Part shown: piece by piece, positions 694 through 53,234 of the stretch | Layout of the letters: each line of letters starts with the position of its first letter | Position numbering within the stretch: position 1 is the first letter of the stretch | From: Bdellovibrionota bacterium | GTDB lineage: Bacteria > Bdellovibrionota_C > UBA2361 > CAKMMH01 | Direction of reading: 5' to 3' | DNA length: 64,000 bases | NCBI GenBank assembly: GCA_050952645.1 | Contig: JBMNLI010000012.1 | Coordinates: forward strand, 287,588 to 351,587 | Position numbers and translations under genes: made by a program | The notes under the pieces: generated by a model | What the model was told of the DNA's origin: nothing | The model's input: only the letters and a program-made list of their open reading frames with translations | Databases searched by the model: none

Positions 694-908
694 TAGCAAT
701 GAGTTTAGTAGCTAGAAATGGGAAAAGAGTAGGAAAAGAATATAAAGAGAGTAGAAAAACAAAAACGGTAGTTCATTTCACGTGTTTAAGTGGGTTAGAA
801 AAAAATTACAGCTACACTTAAAGTTTAGGTTTTAAAGTAATTTATTTTATTTAAACACTTTTAAACGTGTAGAACTGTATTTATCAATAACTAGTTTTTA
901 CTAGTTTT

Positions 909-1649: not shown

Positions 1650-1784
1650 TATTTTTAACGACTCCCCTACTTATCACAAAAATTTCTAATAAATTTTAAA
1701 TATTGCAAATTGTATCATTTAATTTTATCCTTAAGAAGTGGTGTTTTTTTGTAATAAAAAATATAAAAATAGGAAAATCTTTAT

Positions 1785-3158: not shown

Positions 3159-3196
3159 CAATTTAAAGATTATAATAATTTACAGATATTTTATAT

Positions 3197-3862: not shown

Positions 3863-3935
3863 ATGTTTATATAACAATATGCGTAACTTTTTTTAAAAGA
3901 TGAGAATTTTTTAAAGACTAGAAGCAAGATAATAG

Positions 3936-4811: not shown

Positions 4812-4907
4812 GTTTAAAAGCTTAAAATTAGCCTTTAAGATAATTATTAAGATAATTAGAGTTTGAAAAAATTAAGTTTGAAAAAAAACGTTAACAAAGG
4901 TTATATT

Positions 4908-16957: not shown

Positions 16958-16983
16958 ATGAAAAAATACTACCTTATTTATAT

Positions 16984-23309: not shown

Positions 23310-25390
23310 TTAAAGCAAAGCTTTTCTAGAGAGCCTTATTTTACCGAATCTATCGACCTCTAAAACTTTCACTTCAATCTCATCGCCAATTTGCATCTCG
23401 TCTTCTACTCGCCTAATTTTCCTATTAGCGATCTCTGAAATATGTAAAAGCCCATCGGTGCCAGGTAGAATTTCAACGAACGCCCCAAAGTCTGCTATTC
23501 TTTTCACTATACCTTTGTATACTTTACCAACCTCGGCTTCAGCTACAATGCTTTCTACTACCGTTAGGGCTGAATTTATATCATCTTGATTAACTGCCGT
23601 AATTGCTACTATGCTATCATCTGAAATATCTATCTTAACATTATAAGACTCTTGAATAGACCTAATGGTTTTTCCGCCTTGCCCTATAATATCTCTTATC
23701 TTATCAGGATTAATTTTTAGCGTTACTATTTTAGGAGCGTAGCTACTAATCTCATCTTTAGGTTTACTTATAACCTCGTTCATTTTAGAAAGGATAAACA
23801 TTCTTCCTTCGTAAGCTTGTGCTAAGGCTTTTTCTAGAATTTCTTTATCTAGTCCTTTTATTTTAATATCCATTTGAAGTGCAGTTACGCCTTTAGCAGT
23901 TCCGCAAACTTTAAAGTCCATATCTCCTAAGTGATCCTCATCGCCGAGAATATCCGTTAGAACTACGAAATCATCACCTCTTTTCATTAGTCCCATTGCT
24001 ACGCCTGCTGCTGGTGCTGTGATAGGAACGCCTGCGTCCATTAACGCTAAACTAGAACCGCACACGGTCGCCATGGAACTAGAACCGTTGCTTTCAGTGA
24101 TTTCTGAAACTATTCTTATTACGTAAGGAAACTCTTCTTCAGGTGGCAAAATAGCGCTTACAGCACGTTCTGCTAGAGCACCGTGCCCAATTTCACGTCT
24201 CCCTGGGCCCCTTACAGGCTTAGTTTCACCTACTGAAAACGGTGGAAAATTATAGTGTAAAATAAATTTCTTTTTTGCATCATCTTCCATTAAATTATCG
24301 ATTCTTTGTGCTTCGCTTTCAGCTCCTAAAGTGGTCGTAACTATAGCTTGAGTTTCCCCACGAGTAAAAAGTGAAGAACCGTGCGTTCTAGGTAGAACTC
24401 CAATCTCTATAGAGATAGGTCTTACCTCGTTAAATGCACGTCCATCTATTCTTTTTCCTTTATCGAAAGCAAACCCTCTAACGATTTGATAATTTAAATC
24501 TTCAAATATTCTATCTATTTGAACTTTAATGTCGCTTGCGTTTTCATCATCTTCTTTAACGAACTCTTCTACTAGTTTTTCTTTCGCTAATTTTACGGCT
24601 TTTGCTCTTTCTAATTTTTCTTTTACTTGAACTGCGTTTTTAATATCTTCAGAAATAAATTTTTTTACATCGTCAAACAATTTTTCATCGTATCTAGTAT
24701 GCTCAAAAACTATTTTTTCTTTTCCTGCTTGTTTAATTAAATCTTCTTGAAGCTCGATAAGTATTTTTAATTCATTATGAGCATATATAAGTGCATCTAG
24801 CACCTCACTTTCAGGCACTTCTTTAGATTCTCCTTCTACCATTACTATTGCATCTTTAGAACCAGCAACGATATAATTTAAATCTGCATTTTCTCTTTCA
24901 GTTGGACTTGGATTTAATCTTTAGTTTGCCGTCTATCCTACATACTCTAACTGCTGCAATTGGTCCATCAAAGGGTATCTCTGAGATTGATAAAGCTGCT
25001 GATGCACCGCACAAAGCTAGAACGTCTGTATCGTGTTCGCCCGTCTGCGCTCATAACGGTCGCAATAACTTGCACTTCTCTATTAAATCCATCTGGGAAA
25101 AGCGGTCTACAAGGTCTATCTATAAGTCTTGAAGTTAGCGTTTCAGCATCGCTAAGTTTTCCTTCTCTTTTAAGAAATCCTCCAGGAATTTTTCCTGCTG
25201 CATAAGTTTTTTCTACATAATCTATGGTAAGAGGAAAAAAATCTCCCTCTTTTTCTTCTCCTAGACAAGCCGTAACGAGCACCACTGAGTCGTAATATCT
25301 TACGAGCACTGCTCCTGCTGCTTGTTTAGCTATTCTTCCTGTCTCTATACTAAAATTACCACCATGAAAGTCTTTCTGTACTATAAACAT
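23310..25390 (-). CDS. pnp: polynucleotide phosphorylase (PNPase) with two apparent +1 frameshifts (~24900 and ~25040)
   Basis: N-terminal 140-aa ORF is a PNPase RNase-PH domain. The C-terminal 510-aa ORF carries the second PH domain, KH and S1 domains. The joining segment translates correctly ([52 protein letters not shown]) only after removing one G from GGG and one A from AAA. Confidence 0.8.
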
Positions 25391-29645: not shown

Positions 29646-31211
29646 CTAAAATAACTTCTCTAAAATAAATGTCTCTCCACCATCGGTAACTGCTGCATAA
29701 ACAAGAACATCGTTAACGCGCCACTCTACCTTAAAAGAGCTTGAAATACAAAGACAATCATTAATATCATCTACTTTTAATTTATTAGTAGAAGCCTTAC
29801 TAGGTTCATCAAAGATTAAATCTTCACCTAAATAAACGCCGTATTCGTTAATTTGAAAATTCGTAAGAAAATAGAAATTTCCTAATTTCCCTTGAAGTGG
29901 CGCTCTTATAGCCCTAGTATGTCCATTTACCTCAAAATCTTGAAGCGAAACGATGTTTCTTAGCTGCAACGCTGGAAGCGCAATCCTAATAGTTTTAAGC
30001 TCATCACTAAAAGATTTTTCATTTTTAGATAAAAAATCTTTAGTAATAAAAAACTCAACTTTTCTACCCTTCCCAAATTCTTTACTCACGTCGATTTTTA
30101 GCGTTTCCCTATCATCAGAAAAACAGCCTAACACTTCGCCAACAACGTAGTGTGTTTTAGAAACGGTGCCATCTTGATTGTAGAAAAGACATATTTCTTC
30201 TAACTTATCAAAACGTTTATCCCATACACGACCAGCGTAAATAGTGCTATAGCCTTGCGTCTTACTAGTAGATGAAAAAACATCTTTAGTAATATTAAAC
30301 AAGCGTTTAAACTCAGCGTTCGCCTCACTTAAAGACACGAACTCTAAGCCTGCTATTTTATTGCTGCTGCCTTGTGCCTCATCTGAAATGATCTTAGTTT
30401 CAATAGCGACATATTCGCTTATTCGTGGAATAAACGACGAATAAAAATCGTTAGTCCCGAGCGATAAATATTTGTTGACGCTATTTACAACTTCTATCTT
30501 TCCGCTACTTTTAATAAAAGCAAGTGCAGGAAGCATTGAAACTGCCGACGAACCTCTTTGATAATTCATAAGAAAGTTATGAGTAAACACATCTTTTGAA
30601 AACGTGTTTAATTTATCGATAGGAGTAGCTTTCTTTAAAAAAGAACCATCAGAGGTGCTATAAATAACAGTTTCACTCTCTTTTTCAAACTGAGTAGTAT
30701 ACTTTCTACGAAGTTTTTCCGTTAATGGTAAAATTTCTTTTGTAGAACCACTCTCAACGTAGGGAGTTAGCTTACTGCTAAACCCACACTTATCGGCAAA
30801 CTCTTTAGCTTCTTTAGTCCAAAGATTTTTAGGACTTCCTAAAGCATCTTCATTCAAAGAAGTAGAAGATGAAAAAGTAGAAGATAAAGGCGAAGATGAA
30901 GATAAAGACGCATCGGGCATTGCACCTAAGCTAAGTCGCCTTGGTTTAAAGCCAAATACTGCCTCACCTAACCTCAAACTTTCTTTAGTGTTAGCGTTAG
31001 CAGTGTCAGCACTAGTAGTGCTAGCGTTAGGTTCACTTTGCCTACAAGTCGTAGGGCTAGAAGTTTCCTCTACATTAACACCAAACATGGCTACATCATT
31101 AGCAAAAGTCGTAGCAAAACCTAAAAAAAACAGAGTAATACACAAAGATGCGATAAAATTTTTCTTAATCATCGCACTTTGCCTCCTTTCTTTTCTTTTT
31201 CCTTTTATCAA
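29646..31211 (-). CDS. secreted 521-aa protein of unknown function (first gene of the higher-GC island)
   Basis: Signal peptide (IASLCITLFFLGFATTFA). Ser/Thr-rich linker. No recognisable domain. Confidence 0.5.
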   Translation of the reverse strand: MIKGKRKERRQSAMIKKNFIASLCITLFFLGFATTFANDVAMFGVNVEETSSPTTCRQSEPNASTTSADTANANTKESLRLGEAVFGFKPRRLSLGAMPDASLSSSSPLSSTFSSSTSLNEDALGSPKNLWTKEAKEFADKCGFSSKLTPYVESGSTKEILPLTEKLRRKYTTQFEKESETVIYSTSDGSFLKKATPIDKLNTFSKDVFTHNFLMNYQRGSSAVSMLPALAFIKSSGKIEVVNSVNKYLSLGTNDFYSSFIPRISEYVAIETKIISDEAQGSSNKIAGLEFVSLSEANAEFKRLFNITKDVFSSTSKTQGYSTIYAGRVWDKRFDKLEEICLFYNQDGTVSKTHYVVGEVLGCFSDDRETLKIDVSKEFGKGRKVEFFITKDFLSKNEKSFSDELKTIRIALPALQLRNIVSLQDFEVNGHTRAIRAPLQGKLGNFYFLTNFQINEYGVYLGEDLIFDEPSKASTNKLKVDDINDCLCISSSFKVEWRVNDVLVYAAVTDGGETFILEKLF

Positions 31212-31393: not shown

Positions 31394-33151
31394 TTAGATT
31401 AAGAATAAAAACATTATAAATAAAATAACTAAAAAAAGCGTAATACCAATAGGAGCTTTTCTTTCATTAAATTTACTAGAAATATTATTAAACCCTCTAC
31501 CTATACTACTTCCTATACTAAGAAGCTTTTTATAAGATATACTATTTAAAGATTCTAAACCTTTATCTATAGTGGCGTTAGTTTTTTTAAATAATTTCCT
31601 ATAAAAATAATCGACATCGATAGTTATCTTATCTCGTTCTTTGTGGTAAATATTATATTTCTTACAAATATATAAAGAAAGAGTAGCAAAAAATAAGATC
31701 TCTAATTGTGTAAGAATGTGAAAACTCGTGTAAGGATTATAAACACTTTCAAAAGGTAAAATATCATAAAGCATTCGATTAGGAAAAAGCCCGATAGCTA
31801 CACAAAGCAAAGAAAGCAAACCCATCGATACATACATACAAATAGGAAGTTTCTTGCTGCCATCTTCTAAATTGCAAACATCATCTTCATTATCCTTATT
31901 GTTTTTGTTATCTGCAAAATTATCTTTAAAAAAAGCGCAATACGGCACCTTAAAATACTTTACGACTGCCGCGCTTCCTATAAGCAAAAACACCCAAACT
32001 AGAGTTAAATTATTTTCAAGTGCACTAGAAAGAATCATTGGTTTTGCTACAAATCCACTAAACATAGGAAAGGCAGCGATAGAAAGCGAACCTATAACGG
32101 CAAAAATAGTAAGAAGTGGCACTTTCTTATAAAGTCCGCCTAGCTTAGAAGCCTTGCAAGTGCCATACTTATAAAGAAGCGCTCCTGTTACCATAAAAAG
32201 TAGCGACTTGTATAAAACGTGAACAAACACCTGCGAAATAGCCCCACTTAGCGATAAATCGCTCCCTATTCCTATCCCTACAACTATAAAGCCTAATTGA
32301 TTTATTAAGCTATAAGATAAAACCTTTCTTAAATCGTTTTCTAAAACTGCAAAAAAAACTGGCACTATCACCATAACTATTCCAATATAAATTAAGGCTT
32401 CCACTCCTAAAAAACACCTAATAAGAGCATACATAGCGACTTTTGTAGTAAGAGAAGATAAAAACACAGCGCCAACTATACTAGCTTTATGATATGCGTC
32501 GGTTATCCAAGTATGAAGCAAAGGAAACCCCGCATTGACTCCTATTCCTAAAAATATTAAATACGTAGAAAGTGAATTTAAACTTAACTTTCTTATAGAA
32601 AGCGATGGAGACTCGCTATATAAAAGCAAAATTCCACATAGCAAAACAAGCCCACCTATTATATGAAAAATTAAATATCTAAACGATGCTTTTTTGCTTT
32701 CTTTATGTTCTCCTAAATATATGAATATAACTGCACCGAAAGTTAAAAGTTCCCAAAAAATATAAAAAGAAAGAAAATCTCCAGCAAAAATAACTCCTAA
32801 ACTAGCCCCTATGTAAAAAAGCCCAGCTCCAATTTCTATGCTATTTTTAACGTAGCTAGAATAAATTAGTGCAAAAATGGCAAACAAATGAAAAAGAAAG
32901 GCAAAAATTAGCGTTATATTATCGTATACGAAAGGCTCTATATTAAAACCTAAAATATTAAAACTTAAGATACGCCCATTAAATACATTATCCGACGTAA
33001 ATTTTACAATAGAAAAAATGCTTGCAATAGGCACTAATAAAGAAAAATTCGTTCTAAGATTTCCCTTTAAAAAGCTAGTTATAATTCCACCTATTATAAA
33101 AATAATCGATGGCATTAGAAAAAAATTAAAATAAATATTACTGCTTATCAT
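31394..33151 (-). CDS. Mrp/Mnh antiporter large subunit (MnhA/D-like, NuoL/M/N family), copy 3
   Basis: 585-aa polytopic membrane protein with a NuoL/MrpD-like TM core. Confidence 0.7.
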   Translation of the reverse strand: MISSNIYFNFFLMPSIIFIIGGIITSFLKGNLRTNFSLLVPIASIFSIVKFTSDNVFNGRILSFNILGFNIEPFVYDNITLIFAFLFHLFAIFALIYSSYVKNSIEIGAGLFYIGASLGVIFAGDFLSFYIFWELLTFGAVIFIYLGEHKESKKASFRYLIFHIIGGLVLLCGILLLYSESPSLSIRKLSLNSLSTYLIFLGIGVNAGFPLLHTWITDAYHKASIVGAVFLSSLTTKVAMYALIRCFLGVEALIYIGIVMVIVPVFFAVLENDLRKVLSYSLINQLGFIVVGIGIGSDLSLSGAISQVFVHVLYKSLLFMVTGALLYKYGTCKASKLGGLYKKVPLLTIFAVIGSLSIAAFPMFSGFVAKPMILSSALENNLTLVWVFLLIGSAAVVKYFKVPYCAFFKDNFADNKNNKDNEDDVCNLEDGSKKLPICMYVSMGLLSLLCVAIGLFPNRMLYDILPFESVYNPYTSFHILTQLEILFFATLSLYICKKYNIYHKERDKITIDVDYFYRKLFKKTNATIDKGLESLNSISYKKLLSIGSSIGRGFNNISSKFNERKAPIGITLFLVILFIMFLFLI

Positions 33152-33353
33152 AAAAATCTTTATCCTTTAAGATTAGTTTACCTAATAAATTAGCAGACAA
33201 TACGTAAAAAAATGTTGCTAAAAAACCAACCACTCCAAATAGTGCAAAGTGTTTTTCAATATTAAAATGCACACTCGACTTATCTATAAAAAACTCAAGC
33301 ACTAAAAGTACTAAACAAATTATGTATAATAAATATGTTAAAAATTTTTTCAT
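33138..33353 (-). CDS. small membrane protein within the mrp cluster
   Basis: 71 aa with two hydrophobic helices. Overlaps the downstream gene by 14 nt. Confidence 0.4.
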   Translation of the reverse strand: MKKFLTYLLYIICLVLLVLEFFIDKSSVHFNIEKHFALFGVVGFLATFFYVLSANLLGKLILKDKDFYDKQ

Positions 33354-33373
33354 TATTTGCCTTTTTAAAAAAA

Positions 33374-34927
33374 CTAAAAATGCTTAACTACCATCTGATA
33401 AACTGCCTGAAAAGTAATATTAGTTACTAAATCTGAATAGAAAAATAGTAGTAGTGAGATAAGCGTAGTCGCTACTATCGAAAACATACATAGCATTGGA
33501 ACTTTCCTAATTAAAGGACTCTCTTTAACTTCCTTCTTACTACTGTTATCACTAGACTTATCACTGCTTTTATCAAATTCAAAAGCTTTAAATAGTATTG
33601 GAAACAAATATATAAGAGCTAAAAATGAGCTTACTAGATAAACGATAAGAAACGCTATCTTGTTTTCCCAAAGCATCCCCTCTAAAAGCATATACTTTGC
33701 TAAAAATCCTCCTGACGGTGGAAGCCCAACTAACGCAAGGCTCGCTATAAAAAAGCATATAAACGTTATAGGCATTTTGTAGCCAAGTCCTCCTATTTCG
33801 CTAAGGCGTTCCTTCCCAGTTGAAACTAAAATAACTCCTACAATAAAAAATAAAGTTATTTTAGCAAATGCGTGAGACACTAAATAAAAAAGCGCACCAC
33901 TAATCGCATAAGGATTTAGTGCAAAAATTCCAAGCAAAACATACGAAAGCTGACTTATAGTCGAATAGGCTAGCCTTTTTTTTAAATTATCTTGATTTAA
34001 TGCCATCAACGCTCCAAGTATGATGGTAATGCTTACTACTGTGCAGAAAATAAGACTTATGCTTACTGTGCCTAACTTTTGAGTTTTTAAAAACTCCGTG
34101 CCAAAGATAAAAGCTACTACTCTGTAAATAGAAAACACTCCAGATTTAACTACTGCCACAGCGTGTAAAAGAGCACTTACAGGCGTAGGAGCAACCATGG
34201 CATTTGGAAGCCAAGCATGCATTGGCATTACGGCTGCCTTTGCAAAACCAAAAAGAAACATCGATAAAAGCACAAAAATTTCTAGCGATGAAAAATTTGC
34301 ATTAGCTAAAATTCCATTTGCAGTAAAATCTAGAGTGCCAGTTTTTAAATATATATAAACTATAGCAGGTAGCACTAGCCCTATGGAACCTCCTAAAATA
34401 TAGCCTAGATATTTTCTTCCAGAAACCATGGAAGCCTTATCTTGGTGATGGGTAACTAAAGGATAAGTGCTTATAGATAATATTTCATAAAAAATAAATA
34501 GCGTTAATAAATTTTTTGAAAAACATATTCCGATTGAGGCAAAAATAGCTAGTGCAAAAAATGAATAAAACCTATTTTGTGAGCGTTCTTTTAACGTTCG
34601 CATATAGCCAATAGAATAAATGCTAGTTAAAGTCCATAAAATACTGATAATCATAAAAAATATCGTGCCACTAGCATCAAACAAAAAAGAGAGCCTTCCA
34701 TTTTTTAATAACTCGAAAAGGTCGGTAGTATAGATAAAATTAGAACTAGTCGTTTGGTAAAATAGTATGCTAATAAGAGTTAACATAAACCCTGTAAATA
34801 CCATAAAAAAATCTCTCATAATTTTAAGTTTTCTAAATATATAAATGCATGCTATTAAAATAATTGGATATATAAAGATACTTAAAGGATATAATGAATT
34901 TACTACGATACTGTTTTCTGCATACAT
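33374..34927 (-). CDS. Mrp/Mnh antiporter subunit D-like (NuoM/N family), copy 2
   Basis: 517-aa MrpD/NuoN-like membrane protein. Confidence 0.7.
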   Translation of the reverse strand: MYAENSIVVNSLYPLSIFIYPIILIACIYIFRKLKIMRDFFMVFTGFMLTLISILFYQTTSSNFIYTTDLFELLKNGRLSFLFDASGTIFFMIISILWTLTSIYSIGYMRTLKERSQNRFYSFFALAIFASIGICFSKNLLTLFIFYEILSISTYPLVTHHQDKASMVSGRKYLGYILGGSIGLVLPAIVYIYLKTGTLDFTANGILANANFSSLEIFVLLSMFLFGFAKAAVMPMHAWLPNAMVAPTPVSALLHAVAVVKSGVFSIYRVVAFIFGTEFLKTQKLGTVSISLIFCTVVSITIILGALMALNQDNLKKRLAYSTISQLSYVLLGIFALNPYAISGALFYLVSHAFAKITLFFIVGVILVSTGKERLSEIGGLGYKMPITFICFFIASLALVGLPPSGGFLAKYMLLEGMLWENKIAFLIVYLVSSFLALIYLFPILFKAFEFDKSSDKSSDNSSKKEVKESPLIRKVPMLCMFSIVATTLISLLLFFYSDLVTNITFQAVYQMVVKHF

Positions 34928-34933
34928 ATAAAA

Positions 34934-36400
34934 CTATCCTAAAAATGAGTTAATAATCACATCTATAAATAAATGCACTTTAGCTCCAAAGTATATTATT
35001 AAAAGCGAACTAACTAGTAATACCGCATTAGTAATAATTGGAAATTTACTATTTTTAGCATTTGGAACTTTTTTATAATTAAAATATATTTTTTCAAAAA
35101 ATTTAAGAAAAAAAGCTAGTAATATAAAACTTGAAACTATAAGGCTTATAACGTAAAAATAACTGTTTGCTTTAAATGCTACTAATATAAAATAAAATTT
35201 ACTAAAAAATCCTCCAGTAGGTGGAATCCCAAGCACCGAAAGAGCAGTTATAATAAAAGAGAAAAGTAGAATTTTTTCTTTTGCTAAGATATTAGTATCT
35301 AATAAATCGCTATGATTATAAATTTTATAGTAATATTCTAAAACACCTGCTGATAAAAATAGTGTAAGCATCATAAGGATATCTATTAAAATATGGTAAA
35401 GCACCGCTTTAATACCTAAAACATCTTGAAACCAAAGCGCCCCAAACATTAAGGAGCATTCCATTAAAAGCACGTAACAAAAGGACGCTCTAATGTTTTT
35501 TTGAGTAAACGCTTTTATCGAAAAGTAAATCATTCCTATAGCTGCAATATTTGGCATTAAGTATTTAAAGCCTTCTAGTGAAAAAAGATAATCTACGCCA
35601 AACACTAACACTATAACCTTTATACATGCAAACAGAGAAACTTTAGTTACTATCGGTGCCATAAGCGTGCTTACTGGGCTAATCGTTTTTGAATAAGCAA
35701 AAGGAAGCCAGCTGTGAAAAGGAAAGAATGCTATCTTTATCGATAAGCCTATCACTATAAATAGAAATGAAGCTTTAATTGAGGTCGTTTTATATAGCGG
35801 AAGAACGTAATGATGAAGCTCTTGCATATTTAAATTTCCAGTTTTTAAATATAAAATTCCAACTCCAAGCAAATAAAAGCTAGCCCCAATAGTTCCAATT
35901 ATTAAATACCTAAATGATGCTACATAACTTTCCTTTCTCCCTAATGCAATCATGGCATACGAGCTAAGAGAAACTATTTCTAAAAATACGTATAAATTAA
36001 AAGCGTCTCCCGTTATAACTATTCCTAAAATTCCAGTTAGAAAAAGTAGTAGTAATGAATAAAAAGCGTAAAACTTATCTGGAAATCTTAAATAAATAAA
36101 TTTTCTTGAATATAAAACCGTAGCTAATAAAACAAAGCTTATTATGCTTAATAATATTGCATTGTAAGTATTTAAATAAAAAGCTATACCTATGCTTTGC
36201 CCCCAACCTCCTAAGTTATAACTTCGAGAGCCATTTAGGAAAGTTTCTTTTACTCCGAGTAATGAAAAATAAATTGAACATAAAATAGACAATACGGCAA
36301 GGGGGTAGCATAAGCTTTTTTTAAAAGAGCCTATAACTCCTATTAAAAGTGCTGCTATAAATGGACATATCAATATTAATATTGGAAGTTGTGATATCAT
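34934..36400 (-). CDS. Mrp/Mnh antiporter subunit D-like (NuoN family), copy 1
   Basis: 488 aa. Overlaps the mnhC stop by 4 nt. Confidence 0.7.
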   Translation of the reverse strand: MISQLPILILICPFIAALLIGVIGSFKKSLCYPLAVLSILCSIYFSLLGVKETFLNGSRSYNLGGWGQSIGIAFYLNTYNAILLSIISFVLLATVLYSRKFIYLRFPDKFYAFYSLLLLFLTGILGIVITGDAFNLYVFLEIVSLSSYAMIALGRKESYVASFRYLIIGTIGASFYLLGVGILYLKTGNLNMQELHHYVLPLYKTTSIKASFLFIVIGLSIKIAFFPFHSWLPFAYSKTISPVSTLMAPIVTKVSLFACIKVIVLVFGVDYLFSLEGFKYLMPNIAAIGMIYFSIKAFTQKNIRASFCYVLLMECSLMFGALWFQDVLGIKAVLYHILIDILMMLTLFLSAGVLEYYYKIYNHSDLLDTNILAKEKILLFSFIITALSVLGIPPTGGFFSKFYFILVAFKANSYFYVISLIVSSFILLAFFLKFFEKIYFNYKKVPNAKNSKFPIITNAVLLVSSLLIIYFGAKVHLFIDVIINSFLG

Positions 36401-39860: not shown

Positions 39861-41111
39861 CTAAAATGATGCGATAAATTCCCTGTCGAAAAATTTTGAA
39901 TTCATTCTCGTTCTTAAAATTTTTATCTCAAAAAACCCATCTAATTTTTTATAATTTTCAGGTAAAAAAGGAAGCTTGTATTCCCCATGCTCTAATTGAA
40001 AAAGAGTGACTCTCGGATAAAAAAGATACCTTTTATAATAACTTTTGCCCTCTTCATTTATGATTTTTATTACATATATGCCCTTTGCCGTATAAGACTT
40101 GTTAAAATAAAAAACTCTAGTTTGACTTTTATCTAAAGGAAAATTTACATCTACACTTTCATATAAACCATACTGATTAAAAAGCTCTAGCCTTTTTATC
40201 CCCTTTCCGGAAATTTCAACATTAAAATTAAGCGTCTTTTCTCCATCTACATCTTTTATCTGAACCCACTTTAAATAAATATCACTATCGGCTATAAAAT
40301 TATCCTCTAAGCTTAATACGTGCTTTATATTTTGACACTCAAAAAATTTTTCAAACTTGATATCTCCAATCTCAAAATCAAAATTCTTCCCCTTTATTTG
40401 AACTGAAACTTGTAAATTATTTATATACTGCATTAAAGCATTATAACTATTTATAACAATCCCTAAACTTTCCTTTGCTGAAACATTGCGAGTCCCTGGT
40501 TTTAATAGAAAGTTAATAGAACTAGAATACTTTATAATTAAATTCCTAAGCTTTGCAGATTCCACTGGAGATAAAACTTCGCTGTTCGGAATTTCAGTTA
40601 ACAGCTTATCAATAGCGAGTAATATATTTTTTAGAGTTTGCGACGCAGAAGTCGATTTAATATGCTCCCACTCAATTTGAGTAATATCTTTGTTTATTAC
40701 TTGCTCCCTGCTTTCATCTAAATCTTGAATGTAAATATTGTGTATTAACCATTCTATCTCTTCAAGCGGATTTAATGATAAAAAGGTAACCTGAGTTTCT
40801 CTGTTTTCCACATCAACTTGCCCATCACTATCATTCTTACTATCCTGACTGTCCTTACTATCCTTATCTTTTGCTTTATCTTGCTTTTTAAAAAACTTAT
40901 TTTGCTTAATTTTCTTATCTTCTTTTATTTTTACAAAATTTTGCAAATCTTTCGCTTCTTTTACTTTAGTTCCTATTTTTTTCGTTTTATCAATAACTAC
41001 ATCAACATCTTTTTTTAACTTTATCGTAGTAGATACATTTAATATAGCAGGAACAAATATTATGCCTGCTACCGTCAAAACTATTAGAAATATTATCACA
41101 TATTTTTTCAT
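39861..41111 (-). CDS. hypothetical membrane-anchored protein (416 aa)
   Basis: N-terminal TM/signal anchor. Lys/Asp-rich linker. No domain recognised. Confidence 0.45.
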   Translation of the reverse strand: MKKYVIIFLIVLTVAGIIFVPAILNVSTTIKLKKDVDVVIDKTKKIGTKVKEAKDLQNFVKIKEDKKIKQNKFFKKQDKAKDKDSKDSQDSKNDSDGQVDVENRETQVTFLSLNPLEEIEWLIHNIYIQDLDESREQVINKDITQIEWEHIKSTSASQTLKNILLAIDKLLTEIPNSEVLSPVESAKLRNLIIKYSSSINFLLKPGTRNVSAKESLGIVINSYNALMQYINNLQVSVQIKGKNFDFEIGDIKFEKFFECQNIKHVLSLEDNFIADSDIYLKWVQIKDVDGEKTLNFNVEISGKGIKRLELFNQYGLYESVDVNFPLDKSQTRVFYFNKSYTAKGIYVIKIINEEGKSYYKRYLFYPRVTLFQLEHGEYKLPFLPENYKKLDGFFEIKILRTRMNSKFFDREFIASF

Positions 41112-44823: not shown

Positions 44824-46743
44824 TTATAATTCATTATTTAGTAGTAAACTAGCAACCGCTAATGGCTCTAAATTATTAGCTTGAGAAAGTGCTTTAGGAG
44901 CATTCTTTATAATTTCGCTTCTAAGTTTTTTAGCGATAATGTCGGCAGTCTCGGAAGTTAAAACTTCGCTCGATAAATCTAGGAGTGCAAAGCCCGTAGC
45001 TTTTACTAACTCTAAATTGCTTTCTATAACATTAAACATTTCATCCATAGTTTTTATGTTAGTTTCAAGCGTCTCTTTTAAATCACCTAATGCATTACTT
45101 AACTTATAAGCATCTATCGAGTTTGATAAATTAAGATTTTTATCAAAAATCGATGAAAATGTTTTTGATACTCTAGAAAATTTATTCGTTTTTTCTCCGC
45201 TAAACCTTACAAATTCGTCTTGCGTGCTATTATCGATATTTTTTAATGTTCCAAATACGCCAAGTTCTACGACTTGTGAGCTATTATAAGAAAGCGTTAG
45301 CTGTTTTATGCTGTCTAAAGGCTCTCCATTATAACTAGTAATTTCTTGTCCTAAATTATTTATAACTTTTATATTATTTGCGCTAGGCTCAGAATACGCA
45401 ATGTAAGAAAGCCCATTTAGATTATTAGAAATAGTAGAAAACTCTTCTACTAAAACACCACTCTTTATAGTCTTAAAATCATTACTTCCATATTCATAAG
45501 ATAAAATATTACTCCCATCGTAAACGGCAATAGTATTTAAGTCTATAAACCCAAATTTTGTAATGTTTGTATTACTTGAAAAATCATCATCGTTAACAAA
45601 ATCGCTACTTCTAAGTAAATAATTTTGCATATTTTCAGTATCGCTATACGCTGTATATCCCCCATCAGAGCTAATTTGTAAATTAGTAAAAGCCGCGCTT
45701 GCTGCCCCCTCCCTTCTTGCTACTTCTTCTAAAATTAAAGGGCTACTTAAGTCGCTTATATCTACTTTTTCAATCTTTTCTATATTACTATCTTCTGAAA
45801 AACTCGAAAATATTACGACGCTACCATTTTCTGAGATTTTTGCTTCACTATAATTTAACTCATCAGTAGTAAGTTTTTTTAAAAAGTTTCCTCTGTTGTC
45901 AGTTAAATATAATGAAGCGTAATTGATATCTGTTTCATATTTACTTACTATAGAAAGCCCCATTTCTTTATTAACATCTTTTAGTTCATACTCTACACCA
46001 TCTCCTCTTAAAACTATTTTTTCACCAGTAGAGTTTGAGATAAATGAAACCGCTTTTTTACCATCGATAACGCTAGAAAGAACGTTTACATTATTTGAAA
46101 TAATGCCACCTAGACCTAAAGTGCCATCTTTAGCATTAGTAGATATGGTCATAGGAGCATATTTTGAGTTTTCAGACGTTATAACCTTGCCATAAGCACT
46201 CTTTGGAATACTTACTTCTTTTTTAGGTTTTATTTTTTCACTTACTAGACTTTCATTATCACCATCAAAAATAAACTTGTCAAAAACCTCTGCGATAGCT
46301 TCCGACTTTTCAGGATCTAAACCAATTATAGAAAATAATTTACTAAGTCCCTCTTTAGTTAAAAGATCTTTTTCCGCTAGAGAGGCATTGCTAACGAGTT
46401 CCTTAAATTCTTTTACTAACTCACCGTACTTTATATTTAATCTCTTTCTAGTATAAGTTTGAACTGATGGAGATTTAGCTTTTTCTGTAAGCTTTAGCAT
46501 ATCGTCAGTTATCTTTAAAAGCCCTGAAAGAGTGTCCTTTGATATATTTAAATAGTTTATAAGAGAGTTTAAAGATGATACAGAGTTAGCATAAATTCTA
46601 GCTCCACTTTGCAAAGTATCACTCCAGCCTAGGTCTTTAGTATTGCTCACACTTTTAGAAGATGTCTTCTTAGCCATCTTCTCAATAGTAGCAACGAAGT
46701 CTTTATTTAAAACTGTTGATAAACTTACACGACTTACCGTCAT
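44824..46743 (-). CDS. flgL: flagellin-family protein, probably flagellar hook-associated protein 3 (FlgL-like) with a long central insert
   Basis: N-terminal flagellin-N-like LQSGARI motif. C-terminal flagellin-C-like LSQANNLEPLAVASLLL. Confidence 0.5.
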   Translation of the reverse strand: MTVSRVSLSTVLNKDFVATIEKMAKKTSSKSVSNTKDLGWSDTLQSGARIYANSVSSLNSLINYLNISKDTLSGLLKITDDMLKLTEKAKSPSVQTYTRKRLNIKYGELVKEFKELVSNASLAEKDLLTKEGLSKLFSIIGLDPEKSEAIAEVFDKFIFDGDNESLVSEKIKPKKEVSIPKSAYGKVITSENSKYAPMTISTNAKDGTLGLGGIISNNVNVLSSVIDGKKAVSFISNSTGEKIVLRGDGVEYELKDVNKEMGLSIVSKYETDINYASLYLTDNRGNFLKKLTTDELNYSEAKISENGSVVIFSSFSEDSNIEKIEKVDISDLSSPLILEEVARREGAASAAFTNLQISSDGGYTAYSDTENMQNYLLRSSDFVNDDDFSSNTNITKFGFIDLNTIAVYDGSNILSYEYGSNDFKTIKSGVLVEEFSTISNNLNGLSYIAYSEPSANNIKVINNLGQEITSYNGEPLDSIKQLTLSYNSSQVVELGVFGTLKNIDNSTQDEFVRFSGEKTNKFSRVSKTFSSIFDKNLNLSNSIDAYKLSNALGDLKETLETNIKTMDEMFNVIESNLELVKATGFALLDLSSEVLTSETADIIAKKLRSEIIKNAPKALSQANNLEPLAVASLLLNNEL

Positions 46744-47444: not shown

Positions 47445-48629
47445 TTAAAAATTTATTTTTACGTAAGATAAACTATGATCTGAAGCTTGAGGGTATACAT
47501 CAGAGATGCCACTGTTGTAATTTCCTTCAACTGCAAAATTTTCCCAAGTAAAAGACAAACTCGGAACTGCTACTAGTATATCGTCTACCCAAGAATAAGT
47601 ATTTTGGTACATGTATGTTCCTTGTAATCTCGATGTTTCTGCGTCATCAGTAAGAACCGATATAAACACTGGAGGTCTAACGACACCACTTTGACAAAGT
47701 GGAACGCCTTTTTTTGAAAGTCTACAAGGCGCCTTACCTGAAAACATACTAAGAGTATGAGTGCCTTTTAAAATTCTTGCCGATGCAGAATCAAGGTCTG
47801 CATTTCTATCACCTAGTAAAATTAAAATCTGTTCTCCATCTATTAAGCTTTTTTTAAATCTATTTTCTACAATACTTCTTAACGCTTCAGCAGATTGCAT
47901 ACGTAAAATTTCCCAATTAGTTTTTGCTGGGTCTTTAAAGCCTCCACTTTTAGATTTAAAATGAAAAGTTATTATATTTATTTTTTTAGTTTTATTTTTT
48001 CCTCTAGCCTTAACTTTTAGCTGTATTTCAAAAGGCCCACGAGTAAAAAATTTAGGTCTCTCTCCCTCGATAAGCTTTGGAAGTTCGACTCTTGAATAAG
48101 ATACGGTATCTAAAACCTCTGCTCTATCTTTCGCTACTAAAAAACCTACTCTAGAATATTTATCGTTTGAACGTGCTAAGTAATAATTAAAAACTCTACC
48201 AGTATTATGAGCAAGCAATTTTCCAAGTTTTTTTATAGCCTCTTTAGAGTTGTTTTCATTTCCTAAAAGCTCTTGAAAAGCTATTACATCACATTTATTA
48301 AAAGCAAATCTTTTTACTAGTGCTTTATTTTTAAGAGTGTAATCATCCTTTGAAAGTTTTGCATTTCTCTTTTTAGCATCATCAAACAATCCGTAATTTT
48401 CTAAATTTTGACTACATACTACTAAATCAACTTCTCCTCTTGGGTCATCATCGTATATTTTATATCCTCTAGATTGTGCGGATAAGTCGTTTGCAATAAG
48501 TAAAAATAAAAATATAAAACTTGCATACGTTCTAAACACTCCTGACAATTTTTGCATCATTCTTTGTATCGTTCTTTGTATCGTTTTTTGCATCGTTCTT
48601 AACATCATTCTTAACATTATTCTTAACAT
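47445..48629 (-). CDS. secreted endonuclease/exonuclease/phosphatase (EEP) family protein
   Basis: EEP motifs (VIAFQEL ... LGDRNAD ... SDHS). The N-terminus as tracked (MLRIMLRMMLRTMQKTIQR) is encoded by 12-nt tandem repeats. The true start is probably MMQKLSGVF..., a signal peptide. Confidence 0.6.
   Translation of the reverse strand: MLRIMLRMMLRTMQKTIQRTIQRMMQKLSGVFRTYASFIFLFLLIANDLSAQSRGYKIYDDDPRGEVDLVVCSQNLENYGLFDDAKKRNAKLSKDDYTLKNKALVKRFAFNKCDVIAFQELLGNENNSKEAIKKLGKLLAHNTGRVFNYYLARSNDKYSRVGFLVAKDRAEVLDTVSYSRVELPKLIEGERPKFFTRGPFEIQLKVKARGKNKTKKINIITFHFKSKSGGFKDPAKTNWEILRMQSAEALRSIVENRFKKSLIDGEQILILLGDRNADLDSASARILKGTHTLSMFSGKAPCRLSKKGVPLCQSGVVRPPVFISVLTDDAETSRLQGTYMYQNTYSWVDDILVAVPSLSFTWENFAVEGNYNSGISDVYPQASDHSLSYVKINF
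48555..48626. repeat. 12-nt tandem repeat x6 (catcrttcttwr) between the ruvC stop and the probable start of the EEP nuclease gene
   Basis: catcattctttg tatcgttctttg tatcgttttttg catcgttcttaa catcattcttaa cattattcttaa. Confidence 0.6.
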
Positions 48630-49228
48630 CGCCTTCTCCTATAATTAGATGTGAAAACCTCATCTAAACTTAAATTAGTTCTTAATGCGTTATCTATTCT
48701 GCTTAGCGCAAGCGTACCGATTAAAATTGCATCTATTATATCTTGATTACTCTTTTTTAAAATATCTTTTTCTAAAAAACCAATATTTAAAAGCTCCTTT
48801 GCGTAAAGAGTGCTAACCGTCTGCCTAGCTATCTGCTTAACATTTTCTCTATCTATTTGAGAGCCTTTTAAGCCCATTATCTCATATTGAACGGTTCTAG
48901 GATTTACTCTCCCTGGAACGCAAGCCTTGAAACTTCTAGCTAAAACATCAAAAATACACCTTACTTGCTCAACGACTAGCGTCGCTCTAGGGTCGACTAT
49001 GGATGTAGCTTCTTCGCAAATTAACACATCGTTTTTTGAAAGTTCTAATGCTTTAAATAAAATGGAAACTTTATTTTGAAGATCTAAAAGCTTTTCGCTT
49101 AAAACTCCTTTATCTACAGATTTTATATTACCTACACAAAGAAGTTTTTTTAAGTTTATATCAAAAAGTGCCCAACCTGAACAAGTTAAACTCGGGTCGA
49201 TGGCTAACAATCTTTTATATTTTTTCAT
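48623..49228 (-). CDS. ruvC: crossover junction endodeoxyribonuclease RuvC
   Basis: N-terminal LAIDPSLTCSGWALF (the RuvC catalytic Asp motif region). RNase-H-like fold and length (~200 aa). Confidence 0.55.
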   Translation of the reverse strand: MKKYKRLLAIDPSLTCSGWALFDINLKKLLCVGNIKSVDKGVLSEKLLDLQNKVSILFKALELSKNDVLICEEATSIVDPRATLVVEQVRCIFDVLARSFKACVPGRVNPRTVQYEIMGLKGSQIDRENVKQIARQTVSTLYAKELLNIGFLEKDILKKSNQDIIDAILIGTLALSRIDNALRTNLSLDEVFTSNYRRRRC

Positions 49229-49384
49229 ATATATATATTTCTTTATATGGTATTAATAATTATGTAGTAATTGATTTTAAATAATGATTAAAATTTAGTC
49301 TTTTAATATTCTATTTTGTATATTAAAATTTTAACGTTTAAATTTTATAAAGACAATGGATTTTTATAACTATAAATAGGAAAT

Positions 49385-50191
49385 ATGAATAAGGAAGTTT
49401 TATTTGAACTATATTCTAAAATGTATTATTTAAGAGAATTTGAGAAACTTATTTCAAAAAGTTTTCTTTTAGAAAATATTCAAAAACTCCCTACATCTTA
49501 TTATAAATTAGAAGCTTTAGCAGTATCGCTTATCTCAGTTTCTTCCCCTAGCGACTATCTATTTTCAACAGATAGAGTTCATCCCTATTTTATCTTAAAG
49601 CATAATAAAATAGAGCGTGGCATAAAAGAATATTTTAAAATATTAAAAAATAGTGAAAATATCGCTAACAACACCTTAAGGGCTTTTTCGTTTAACGATC
49701 ACCCTGAAAGAGTATTTAATACGATGCAAGGTATGGCTTTATCGTTTAAGGAAACCAGCTTTATGCCAGCATTTTTAATTACGCTAGATAGTATGCACGC
49801 TACTTTAAAGCAATTTTTAGACTCGGTTATATTTTCTATAACGAACACGCTTCCTGCTGTTTACATCATAGAAAGAACTAAACAAGATGATATAACAGTT
49901 TTAAATAATATTTTAGAAACCAATAGGGATAAGGTTTTAAGAGCTGAAATAAAGACTGATGATATATTCGAGCTAAGAAGCGTTTTTTTAAAAGCGATAA
50001 GAAGCGCAAAAGAATATTTAACGCCAGCGGTGATCTTATGCAATGCTTTTAACTCTAGCGACCCAATAGAGTTTTTAGAAAATAAAATGGTGCTACTAGA
50101 ACTTTCATTAGATGAGTTAAAAGAAACGCTTAATACTGAAATAAATTATTTAATAAATGAAGATTTAAAAGAGTTTTTAAATGTTGCTTAA
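49385..50191 (+). CDS. divergent 2-oxoacid dehydrogenase E1 alpha-like protein lacking the canonical GDG...NN ThDP-binding motif
   Basis: LFELYSKMYYLREFEKL...YKLEALAVSLISVSSPSDYLFSTDRVHPYFILK aligns with the E1alpha block LYRQMLTIRRFE...IGEEAVAVGA...YIVSTYRDHGHALAR. The position of GDGA...ENNGYA reads TLDSMHAT...IIERTKQ. Confidence 0.45.
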   Translation: MNKEVLFELYSKMYYLREFEKLISKSFLLENIQKLPTSYYKLEALAVSLISVSSPSDYLFSTDRVHPYFILKHNKIERGIKEYFKILKNSENIANNTLRAFSFNDHPERVFNTMQGMALSFKETSFMPAFLITLDSMHATLKQFLDSVIFSITNTLPAVYIIERTKQDDITVLNNILETNRDKVLRAEIKTDDIFELRSVFLKAIRSAKEYLTPAVILCNAFNSSDPIEFLENKMVLLELSLDELKETLNTEINYLINEDLKEFLNVA

Positions 50192-51011
50192 AATACAAGA
50201 TTGTTTTTCATGGACATTAAATAGGTTTCAAGATACGTTAGCAAAAGGTTTGTTAATATACGCTGACAGCTCTAATGAGGTAGAATTATTAGTAAGCTCT
50301 TGTAAAAATAATATCGTTTTAAAAGACAATCCTTCTAAAGAGATAATCGATTTTGCAAACGGGGCTGCTATTAGCGGTCGCCCTGTAGCATCGCTAGTCT
50401 GTGCTAACGGCGAATATAATGATATCATATTAAATATACTAGACTTAGCTAAGACGCTTTCGGAGCCGACTTTTAAGCATATAAATGTGTTAATAGATAA
50501 TGATTTCTCTACTTTAGATGTAAATTATATTGGTAATTTATTTAGCACATTAGATTACAAAATCTATCTTCCATCTAACCCTTATGATTTTTGTTCATTA
50601 TTAAAAATAGCACTAGAAGATGCTAATCCTAACTTTTTTTTAATTTCACCAGATATTTTTGAAGTGCAAGGTCCAGTGCCTGATTTTGAAACCGACCCTT
50701 TAACTAAGAGCCAATCTAAAATAAGAAAAGAAGCTAACGATGTTTCAATTATAGCAACGGGCGAAGATATATTTCAAGCTTGCGAATATGCCGATAGTTT
50801 ACCTTTAAACGCAGAGATTATAGAAACTAGAGTTATATCTCCTATCGACTATCAAACGCTTACTAACTCTATTTTAAAAACTAAAAACGCTAAGATAATT
50901 CAAACTAACTCTTATTTAGAAAACTTTAATCAAGATTTATGTAGCAAGCTACAAAATCTTTGTAAGGATGCTTTTATTTGCATTGAAAGAATTGAGTGTA
51001 ATGAAAATTAA
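50181..51011 (+). CDS. divergent 2-oxoacid dehydrogenase E1 beta-like protein
   Basis: YKIYLPSNPYDFCSLLKIALEDANPNFFL aligns with the E1beta block [29 protein letters not shown]. The C-terminal domain also aligns (DVSIIATGEDIF...AEIIETRVISPID). The HS..E catalytic residues are not conserved. Overlaps the upstream gene by 11 nt. Confidence 0.55.
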   Translation: MLLKIQDCFSWTLNRFQDTLAKGLLIYADSSNEVELLVSSCKNNIVLKDNPSKEIIDFANGAAISGRPVASLVCANGEYNDIILNILDLAKTLSEPTFKHINVLIDNDFSTLDVNYIGNLFSTLDYKIYLPSNPYDFCSLLKIALEDANPNFFLISPDIFEVQGPVPDFETDPLTKSQSKIRKEANDVSIIATGEDIFQACEYADSLPLNAEIIETRVISPIDYQTLTNSILKTKNAKIIQTNSYLENFNQDLCSKLQNLCKDAFICIERIECNEN

Positions 51012-51417: not shown

Positions 51418-52638
51418 TTGATATATAGTATAATATTACGAATGCAAGAAAACAACTATAAACTTACAATTATAAATAACGAAATAAATAACGAAATAAA
51501 TAACGAAATAAATAACGATATAGATAAAGATGTAAATAACGAAAAAGCTAATGAAAACAAGCTTCCATATTTAATTTATGGCACTATATTTTCTCTATTA
51601 GTTCATACTGGCGTCTTATTTATATTATTTTCACCTCCTAGCAAACCTCCTAAGCCTTTAAAGGTATTAAATGTTGATATATCACAAATAAAATTTAATG
51701 ATAATAAAGAGATTAGTCCTAAAAATTTAGCAAACAAAAAAGAACTTAAAGAAGAGCAATCAATCGGCTTAGATAAAATAAAAAATCAAATAGTAGATGA
51801 TAGCGATATAGTTAATAATAAAGTGCCTAAGAAAACAGAGCTATTGTCTAGTAAAAATAATACTGTTAAAAAAGAGCAAATAAAAAGAGGAGATGGTTTA
51901 GTAAATAACTTAAATAATAATTCTATTACAAATAGCGACTTAAAAAAATCTTATCTAAATAAAAATAATAAAAAAGTAAGGCCTCGCAATGCGAAAAAAC
52001 TCTTATCATTAAAGCTAGATGAAAGCACACTTTTAAGAGATTTTGCAAGCGATGAAACTAAAGATTCTGTTAGTGATAATAATTTTAATAATAATTTTAA
52101 TAATAATGTTAATAATAACGATTCTTTTAATAATCTTGTAAATTACGAGCCATTTTCTAGACCTTATGGAAGCGATGCTAAATTTACTCGGAGTGCTGGC
52201 TCATCTATGTATTTACCTAATATTCAAGATGGCGATATGACGCTTCTTAATACTAAAGCCGAGTATTTTGCGGTGTTTGTAAGACGAGTAGCTACTAGGG
52301 TATTTAGCAAGCTTAGGCAAAGTGGCTGGGAAAGTTTAAGTCGGCACGATATAAACATCATAAATTCTTATGCTAAAATCGAAGCTAAAATGTCTAAAAG
52401 TGGTGATATAATAAGTTTAGACTTAATATCATCTTCGGGAAGTGTAAACTTTGATAATGTTTTAAAAAATGCTATCAAAACATCTGCAAAAGATAGCAAT
52501 CCCCCTAAAAATGCCGTGCTTCAAGATGGATTTATTTACTTTATATTTCAAGCTAAAAGTTGGTCTAGAAACGGAGTAAGCCAAAATGGCACTATAGGAG
52601 AACAAAGATGGCTACTACTTAGCACTGGGTTAAAATAA
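51418..52638 (+). CDS. hypothetical membrane-anchored protein with an (NNEI)3 repeat and Pro-rich segment (TonB/TolA-like architecture, tentative)
   Basis: 15-nt repeats at 51473-51522. Single TM segment followed by PPSKPPKPLK. No clear C-terminal homology. Confidence 0.4.
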   Translation: MIYSIILRMQENNYKLTIINNEINNEINNEINNDIDKDVNNEKANENKLPYLIYGTIFSLLVHTGVLFILFSPPSKPPKPLKVLNVDISQIKFNDNKEISPKNLANKKELKEEQSIGLDKIKNQIVDDSDIVNNKVPKKTELLSSKNNTVKKEQIKRGDGLVNNLNNNSITNSDLKKSYLNKNNKKVRPRNAKKLLSLKLDESTLLRDFASDETKDSVSDNNFNNNFNNNVNNNDSFNNLVNYEPFSRPYGSDAKFTRSAGSSMYLPNIQDGDMTLLNTKAEYFAVFVRRVATRVFSKLRQSGWESLSRHDINIINSYAKIEAKMSKSGDIISLDLISSSGSVNFDNVLKNAIKTSAKDSNPPKNAVLQDGFIYFIFQAKSWSRNGVSQNGTIGEQRWLLLSTGLK

Positions 52639-52799: not shown

Positions 52800-53234
52800 T
52801 TAAAAACCTATATGAAAATTTCCGATACTAACGCTTCCACTTCCACTGCCGTTGACGTGGACGCCTACATTAACTCCGTTTCTAAGACGAACATTTCCAC
52901 CTCCACCATAACCGTTAAAATACAAGTTTCCGTTAGGCCCATAATAGCTCATACTAGAAGAGCCAAAGCTCATACTAGATGACCCATAAGATCTATAGGG
53001 TCTAGGATAAGAGCCATAGCCACTATAAGAGGGAGGGTAGTAGTAACCCCCTGTAGCACTATCGTATATTGGGGGTGGCGGTGGTGCGTACCAACTATTT
53101 GGTGCTTCTACTCTTTGGTGGGGTGGCGGTGGCTGCTGCAAAGCTCTACGCCCTCTAAAACCTTGCGCTTCTGCTTGCGAACAAAAGAAAGCAAGCAAAA
53201 ATGAAGCTAAAATGATAAGATTGAATCTTTTCAT
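52800..53234 (-). CDS. secreted Gly/Tyr/Pro/Ser-rich low-complexity protein
   Basis: Signal peptide. PPPPHQ, YYYPPSYSGYGSYPRPYRSYGSSS, GYGGGGN. Locally elevated GC. Confidence 0.5.
   Translation of the reverse strand: MKRFNLIILASFLLAFFCSQAEAQGFRGRRALQQPPPPHQRVEAPNSWYAPPPPPIYDSATGGYYYPPSYSGYGSYPRPYRSYGSSSMSFGSSSMSYYGPNGNLYFNGYGGGGNVRLRNGVNVGVHVNGSGSGSVSIGNFHIGF

Follow-up and report, generated by a model that had tools for sequence, protein, structure and literature searches.

A Degenerate E1 Alpha/E1 Beta-Like Gene Pair at the Ancestral Pyruvate Dehydrogenase Locus of a Low-GC Bdellovibrionota Clade: A Probable Pseudo-E1 under Purifying Selection

Few enzymes are understood as well as the E1 components that depend on thiamine diphosphate (ThDP). 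In ThDP enzymes, the Asp of a GDG motif and the second Asn of an NN motif act as Mg ligands, and in E1 a Glu of the beta subunit activates the aminopyrimidine of ThDP, while His residues on loops serve catalysis. We know of no ThDP enzyme that lacks a GDG-type Asp. In this study, we describe two adjoining genes that descend from the alpha and beta subunits of pyruvate dehydrogenase (PDH) E1 and in which most of these elements are replaced or deleted. They lie in a 64,000-nucleotide stretch of contig JBMNLI010000012.1 from a Bdellovibrionota bacterium (hereafter the window; GC content ~30%). The E1 alpha-like gene (49385–50191, + strand) is an open reading frame (ORF) of 268 amino acids (aa) that derives, in degenerate form, from PDH E1 alpha, and the E1 beta-like gene (50181–51011, + strand) is an ORF of 276 aa in which the folds of a Pyr-like domain and of the C-terminal domain are retained. 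Direct reading of the sequence shows that the two overlap on the + strand by 11 nucleotides (nt), ATGTTGCTTAA (50181–50191), the ATG of the beta-like gene being placed within the final codons of the alpha-like gene, an arrangement that implies translational coupling. An identical overlap is found at every orthologous locus retrieved (L001–L006), and the start sites are kept, which confirms the initial annotation of 49385–51011 as two translationally coupled ORFs on the same strand. The annotation of the metagenome-assembled genome (MAG) calls the first product “hypothetical” and the second a “transketolase C-terminal domain-containing protein”. We consider it fairly probable that the pair is a PDH E1-derived pseudo-E1, whose catalysis was lost on the stem of a small low-GC Bdellovibrionota clade and which was then fixed in a new, constrained form.

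The relationship of both proteins to E1, although remote, is certain. The alpha-like protein matches the NCBIfam model for PDH E1 alpha, TIGR03182, over residues 4–76 (E 3.9e-7), with a score of 29.3 bits that does not reach the curated cut-off of 393.85. It has no Pfam match, PF00676 included, at E values up to 1, and a profile of its family (six members, 59–75% identity) finds nothing significant among the sequences of the Protein Data Bank (PDB). When 1.84 billion representatives were searched exhaustively with a profile, the family’s own single cluster and 16 weak matches were returned; all ten of the full-length weak matches scanned contain Pfam E1_dh, the other six being fragments of 73–124 aa that were left out of the Pfam scan. 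Alignment of profiles by hhalign joins the alpha-like protein to canonical E1 alpha over 257 columns with a probability of 99.6% (E 1e-23). In addition, all top Foldseek matches of an AlphaFold2 (AF2) model built from a six-sequence alignment are E1 alpha chains (template modelling score, TM, ~0.4), with a mean predicted local distance difference test (pLDDT) value of 60. The beta-like protein is recognized more readily. It matches Pfam Transketolase_C (PF02780; E 1.9e-7, 31.5 bits versus a gathering cut-off of 25.9), PF02779 going undetected by the Pfam scan, and it is closer to the NCBIfam models of E1 beta (E 3.9e-13) than to transketolase (E 6.5e-4 only), while its score against NF006667, 49 bits, does not reach the cut-off of 321. 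It also matches PDB E1 beta chains with E 1e-14. Its AF2 model, from a 67-sequence alignment, is a two-domain structure with pLDDT 91 and a predicted TM score (pTM) of 0.89, which Foldseek superposes on Geobacillus 1w85_B with TM 0.76 and on human E1 beta with TM 0.79 (0.76–0.79 across 1w85_B, 1ni4_B and 6cer_D), so that the fold is predicted with high confidence to be the two-domain fold of E1 beta. Each protein is ~50 aa shorter than its PDH E1 counterpart. The E1 alpha/E1 beta-like identity first proposed is thus well supported, by hhalign for alpha and by the model for beta, and the alignment blocks quoted in its favour, YLFSTDRVHPYFILK and YLPSNPYDFCSLLKIALEDANPNFFL, are both present.

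The genomic position of the pair connects it to true PDH E1. Upstream lie two genes on the opposite strand which we used as synteny anchors, a RuvC-like gene (48623–49228, − strand, 201 aa) and a gene for a secreted protein resembling the endonuclease/exonuclease/phosphatase family (EEP-like; 47445–48629, − strand, 394 aa), the latter assigned by eye from the motifs GDRN and SDH in the absence of a Pfam match. Two of the weak alpha matches, P0128 (locus L011) and P0135 (L014), stand beside these same divergent neighbours: the gene upstream of the E1 pair at these loci is 48–51% identical to the RuvC-like gene, and the EEP-like gene, which was located at most loci, is 47–48% identical to its counterparts there. 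With the RuvC-like protein as anchor, 28 metagenomic loci were retrieved; across these loci, L011 and L014, identities are 43–53% for the RuvC-like and 30–50% for the EEP-like protein. Among the loci in which the upstream flank is present, there are ten (L019–L023, L026, L027 and L030–L032) at which the gene adjoining the anchor is a canonical E1 alpha, followed by E1 beta in eight of them, while two of the ten end early at a contig end. Over the sequence present, all ten alphas have intact YRCHGH, GRGGSMH, GDG..HE..ENN and YRYRGHSMxDP motifs. Canonical orthologues score 408 and 422 bits with TIGR03182 (equivalog cut-off 394) and 463 bits with the E1 beta model, and the nearest named relatives of the canonical genes are annotated as PDH E1 alpha in MAGs of Oligoflexia or Bdellovibrionales. 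Two further loci, L017 and L041, contain short fragments matching the N-terminus of alpha. Since the same divergent neighbours flank canonical E1 alpha/beta genes, the window pair is a positional orthologue of a real PDH E1; it is the pdhA/pdhB of its own lineage, still at the ancestral locus. A gene of ~176 aa with hexapeptide repeats (LbH) is found directly 3′ of E1 beta at three canonical loci (L027 1765–2292, L031 3295–3819 and L032 3355–3882), and L014 (7380–7925) also encodes a hexapeptide-repeat protein after E1 beta; none follows the window pair.

Comparison with these orthologues reveals how far the cofactor site has changed. Three alignment methods (MAFFT, hmmalign and hhalign) concur on the loss of the GDG/NN motifs and on two deletions of alpha loops. 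In the alpha-like protein, YRxHG has become D63-R64-x-H66-P67, in which R64 and H66 are retained by alignment, GIVG has become D105-x-P107-E108, G-D-G reads D135-S136-x and E-N-N reads E163-x-T165, whereas the GRGGSMH loop and a loop of ~29 aa containing YRYRGHS with its catalytic His are deleted in all six clade members. With Ser and Thr in the GDG and NN columns, both Mg ligands are replaced. In the beta-like protein, the His column of GAQH holds Asp or Asn, and both a loop of 8 aa and the C-terminal tail (~28–45 aa) have been lost, while a clade-invariant residue, E54, aligns with the catalytic Glu (DTPIxE); it matches the Glu column both across the 67-sequence alignment and in hmmalign, and a 2-aa deletion comes next. 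The degeneration of motifs reported in the initial annotation is therefore real, and its extent was understated, as the loss of the two alpha loops had been overlooked. The loss of GDG...NN stands too, but not the columns given for it, “LDS...ER”: in the window it is D135-S136-M137 that falls under GDG and R164-T165 under NN. Likewise, of the His/Glu block of beta said to be lost, only the His is gone. The profile alignment suggested as a check, like the other alignment methods, finds both Mg ligands replaced, but leaves D135 as a possible ligand if the alignment is slid by one residue. From these replacements it would follow that the pair has lost ThDP-Mg binding. That it still functions as a ThDP-dependent E1, by way of an unusual cofactor site, seems to us highly improbable. 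Several residues of alpha (R64, H66, E146/D146 and E163), together with E54 of beta, do align with conserved E1 residues, and D135 adjoins the column of the Mg ligand; nevertheless, such an enzyme would have to operate with Ser in place of the GDG Asp, Thr in place of the ligand Asn, D-x-P-E in place of GIVG, no beta His and neither the GRGGSMH loop nor the loop with the catalytic His, and its subunits score 29 versus 394 and 49 versus 321 bits against the cut-offs of the E1 models.

Only 29 of 149 canonical-invariant positions in alpha and 25 of 180 in beta (14–19%) survive in the clade, and many canonical-invariant residues have been exchanged for other residues that are themselves invariant in the clade. 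In alpha, for example, D105 and E108 each stand where canonical E1 has Gly, S136 where it has Asp and T165 where it has Asn; in beta, C8 replaces Ala, C138 replaces Lys and C201 replaces Leu, so that at least three of its four clade-invariant cysteines (C8, C138, C201 and C261) replace canonical-invariant residues. Of 14 former cofactor-site positions, 11 are clade-invariant, compared with 106 of the 254 other positions (Fisher test, performed post hoc, p 0.007). Judged from these alignments, the pocket looks rebuilt instead of eroded. This raises the question of whether the remodelled pocket is a new, non-ThDP active or binding site, the pair being a neo-functionalised enzyme or a ligand sensor and not an inert scaffold. 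Such an interpretation would account for the higher conservation of the former cofactor positions relative to the rest of the protein, for the new invariant residues, acidic or hydroxyl-bearing in alpha and Cys in beta, and for the retention of E54. We regard it as unlikely, however, as no known chemistry corresponds to such a site, and the conservation test is post hoc and covers few positions, invariance among six to eight fairly close sequences being weak.

Both genes have diverged strongly from their orthologues, and this divergence is specific to them. Among themselves, the canonical orthologues are 64–73% identical in alpha, 68–78% in beta and 41–49% in the RuvC-like protein (identity to L032), whereas the window compared with the canonical orthologues has 22–27%, 26–30% and 43–50%, respectively. 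Since the RuvC-like neighbours are equally distant in both comparisons, there has been a very large acceleration on the stem that affected the alpha/beta pair alone. Low GC content was considered as a cause of the divergence and rejected, as locus L020, at 27% GC, has a canonical E1. Within the window clade, the picture is one of constraint. The proportion of nonsynonymous differences (pN) is 0.11–0.24 for the alpha-like and 0.13–0.34 for the beta-like gene at a proportion of synonymous differences (pS) of ~0.54–0.74, and thus far below pS. In the set of comparisons that includes the neighbouring genes, the alpha-like gene has pN 0.15–0.24 at pS 0.63–0.65 and the beta-like gene pN 0.25–0.34 at pS 0.67–0.74. 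These values match those of the neighbours, namely the RuvC-like gene (pN 0.17–0.23, pS 0.69–0.80), RsmI (pN 0.18–0.27, pS 0.60–0.68) and FtsK (pN 0.14–0.18, pS 0.65–0.69). In the least saturated pair, L005 versus L010 (synonymous divergence, dS, ~1), the ratio of nonsynonymous to synonymous divergence (omega) is 0.12 for both alpha and beta and 0.14 for the RuvC-like gene, and it ranges over 0.12–0.21 for the alpha-like gene in the clade, values that are rough because dS is near saturation. One dN/dS comparison, that of FtsK between L001 and L008, was a coordinate mismatch and was excluded. Both ORFs are intact in six to eight diverged genomes, down to identities of 59% (alpha) and 49% (beta). 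These sequence comparisons show that both genes are under purifying selection in the window clade, and that the pair is not a decaying pseudogene.

The window clade is not alone in having altered the pair at this locus, as at least two further lineages have undergone degeneration there. One group consists of P0128 at L011 (3978–5790, 60% GC), P0193 at L045 (474–2320, 35% GC) and P0192. In this group GDG reads SAP or S-N-D/A, ENN reads EH, QNQ or QNC, the YRYRGHS loop is absent and Pro stands in place of the beta Glu. P0192 and P0193 are 56% identical, indicating that this degenerate form has persisted too, while no close relatives of P0128 were found. At L014 (6001–7393), a degenerate alpha, P0135, is followed by a beta reduced to a 176-aa N-terminal remnant, and L024 and L036 no longer have the pair at this position. 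The scores fall accordingly, from 408–422 through 185 and 79 to 29 bits for TIGR03182 and from 463 through 135 to 49 bits for NCBIfam E1 beta, the last value of each series being that of the window; the remnant of L014 has no match to the latter. These other pairs, which belong to lineages of the Oligoflexia/Bdellovibrionales type, share with the window pair the RuvC-like neighbour, the loss of the GDG/NN ligands, the deletion of YRYRGHS and the retention of an alpha-beta pair. They differ in being closer to canonical E1 (39–44% alpha identity; 185 and 79 bits), in keeping a GRGGS-like loop or remnants of it, which the window clade has deleted, and in having Pro or Gly at the position of the catalytic beta Glu, where the window clade retains E54. 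Neighbour joining of the two anchor genes yields a tree in which L011, L014 and the window clade stand apart, but this tree carries no support values, and the number of independent degeneration events is therefore uncertain. Partial degeneration (L011/L045 and L014) or loss of the pair (L024 and L036) in other lineages, including the truncated beta of L014, would fit a PDH that is dispensable in this group, and it might be argued that the window genes are likewise non-functional relics in slow decay. We consider this most improbable: the ORFs are intact in every genome of the clade in spite of DNA of 30% GC, in which stop codons arise easily, the excess of pS over pN equals that of housekeeping neighbours, and the overlap and start sites are conserved.

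The initial annotation had pointed to the absence of adjacent E2 and E3 genes. As an observation this holds: a scan of 20 large ORFs of the window (221–1205 aa, including all ten of 415–585 aa) revealed no E2, E3 or pyruvate:ferredoxin oxidoreductase (PFOR), nor was E2 or E3 found within ~10 kb in related loci. As an argument about function it does not, since the canonical positional orthologues, beside the same RuvC-like gene, also have no adjacent E2 or E3. The missing genes bear on another proposal, in which the genome encodes a real 2-oxoacid dehydrogenase complex at another site and the catalytically dead pair, as a decoy or regulatory E1, competes for the E2 core or modulates it. The C-terminal domain is the best conserved part of the beta-like protein relative to canonical E1 beta, and in the Geobacillus E1 beta (1w85), the top Foldseek match, we take this domain to be the one that contacts the peripheral subunit-binding domain of E2. 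Yet the C-terminal tail of beta is missing and no E2 or E3 appeared among the ORFs scanned; moreover, with the ancestral pdhAB locus taken up by the pair, any further canonical E1 would have to come from a separate acquisition. A decoy role thus strikes us as very unlikely. At L005, a locus of the window clade, a cluster at 520–4376 encodes a POR_N/TPP_enzyme_C plus POR pair (resembling indolepyruvate/2-oxoacid:ferredoxin oxidoreductase), an AMP-binding CoA ligase and an ACT protein, ~6–9 kb from the E1-like pair. By its gene content, this cluster is in keeping with a metabolism of 2-oxoacids in the window clade that depends on ferredoxin.

The description as a pseudo-enzyme or repurposed E1, already offered in the initial annotation, remains the best reading in view of the motif loss and of omega values of ~0.12. 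We envisage that pdhA and pdhB of the TIGR03182 type lost ThDP-dependent catalysis on the stem of one small low-GC clade. Their products would continue to form an alpha/beta complex of the E1 type, probably alpha2beta2, which would be unable to bind ThDP-Mg or to decarboxylate pyruvate. The complex may have been kept for a role outside PDH, either a binding or scaffold function of the ancestral E1, or the accommodation of some other ligand by the remodelled pocket; the former diphosphate pocket would be lined by the clade-invariant residues D63, D105, E108, D135, S136 and T165. Several points weigh against this proposal. Assembly of alpha with beta is inferred only from conserved coupling and co-retention, and the non-catalytic role is likewise putative. 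If the alignment were slid by a single residue, D135 could still serve as an Mg ligand, and R64 and H66 of alpha together with E54 of beta are the types of residue that a working site would retain. The near-saturated synonymous divergence noted above loosens the estimate of constraint, and the alpha model is poor, so that its Foldseek result would back the family assignment only. Finally, the analysis covered 64 kb of the genome, and E2, E3, genes for lipoylation or another canonical E1 may be encoded outside this stretch. An unlikely extension of the pseudo-E1 proposal is that PDH E1 has a second, non-metabolic function in this group of bacteria, kept after PDH was abandoned, several lineages having independently made a conserved “dead” E1 shell. 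By analogy, this function might be protein- or nucleoid-associated or concerned with the cell cycle, and in the window clade the pocket might have been rebuilt as an acidic binding site. A surface role, which had also been put forward, finds no support, as the start of neither protein looks like a signal or twin-arginine peptide, and tatA, a convergent gene, is merely syntenic.

Turning to the gene context, an AT-rich intergenic region (49229–49384) separates the RuvC-like and the alpha-like genes, which diverge from it, and on sequence grounds it presumably holds the promoters of both. An AGGA stands 4–7 nt ahead of the alpha ATG. A promoter scan gave 11 sites versus 13 expected and is uninformative in AT-rich DNA; a terminator scan of the AT-rich DNA of the locus gave no terminators. 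With regard to the neighbours named at the outset, ruvC and tatA, the convergent tatA gene downstream of the pair is confirmed by Pfam, whereas the label ruvC is weak (NCBIfam RuvC E 0.037). The RuvC-like protein has no Pfam match, and its profile has no significant match among PDB sequences. It carries D10, E71 and D162-x-x-D165, which resemble the catalytic tetrad of RuvC, and it may constitute a distinct, group-specific family of RuvC-fold nucleases. Its gene overlaps the EEP-like gene by 7 nt, and the two stay paired across all related loci (window, L011, L014 and L015–L042) at ~45–50% identity. A functional tie of the E1-like pair to tatA or to the RuvC-like gene was considered and rejected, as the synteny is ancestral and is shared by the canonical E1 loci; we treat the RuvC-like gene as a marker of orthology and do not claim that it acts jointly with the pair. 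On the 3′ side of tatA, a gene kept there in the clade (51418–52638, + strand) encodes a 406-aa protein with an N/K-rich low-complexity region containing NNEI repeats and a weak C-terminal TonB_2 match. It is adjoined by a gene (52800–53234, − strand) for a 144-aa protein that is rich in Gly, Ser, Pro and Tyr and whose N-terminus is hydrophobic and resembles a signal sequence.

Other features of the window were recorded in passing. A group II intron (21421–23236, + strand) comprises an Rfam D1–D4 domain (21421–21592), a reverse transcriptase/maturase ORF (22349–23152) and domain V/VI (23166–23236), and is located just past the 3′ end of pnp, on the opposite strand. The pnp gene itself (23310–25390, − strand) is seemingly split into an ORF with the first RNase PH domain (24968–25390) and one with PNPase, the second RNase PH, KH and S1 domains (23310–24842), ~125 nt apart, which could reflect a frameshift, a pseudogene or an assembly error. 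Genes of the alkaline phosphatase superfamily with sulfatase or type I phosphodiesterase domains are clustered at 1785–3158, 12809–13660 and 14846–18165, and three successive Proton_antipo_M genes (31394–36400, − strand) encode subunits resembling those of Mrp antiporters or NuoL/M/N of complex I. Large ORFs of 415–1205 aa without any Pfam match are found at 4863–8480, 9358–11502, 29646–31211, 39861–41111 and 44824–46743.

The locus as a whole offers a series at one genomic position, from canonical PDH E1 through partly degenerate forms (L011/L045 and L014) and the remodelled but constrained form of the window clade to loss (L024 and L036). Such a series could indicate which features of E1 are important beyond its catalytic role, or reveal moonlighting by E1, and could mark lineages that no longer carry out aerobic pyruvate oxidation. 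As the scores lie far below the curated cut-offs, the window pair should not be annotated as PDH E1, and metabolic reconstructions should count neither gene as PDH. The pair is a member of the well-known E1 family and not a new kind of system. With PDH E1 (PdhA/PdhB; TIGR03182, NF006667; PF00676, PF02779, PF02780; structures 1w85 and 1ni4) it shares ancestry, fold, the order of alpha followed by beta and, in the case of the canonical orthologues, the locus; it differs from PDH E1 in the replacement of GDG..NN, the deletion of two active-site loops and the loss of the beta His. Split-gene transketolase (6yak, an active alpha2beta2; 6yaj, an inactive beta4) and DXS/transketolase belong to the same superfamily of PP, Pyr and C-terminal domains, but are lower-ranked Foldseek matches, while sequence and profile evidence place the pair with E1 and its positional orthologues are PDH E1. 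Our literature search for pseudoenzyme E1 returned nothing relevant, and no account of a conserved E1 alpha/beta pair devoid of the cofactor motifs. A precedent for a selectable non-metabolic role of E1 does exist in Bacillus subtilis, in which PdhA (E1 alpha) promotes Z-ring assembly (PMC4030479); that enzyme, unlike the window pair, is fully active, and the comparison is one of analogy only.

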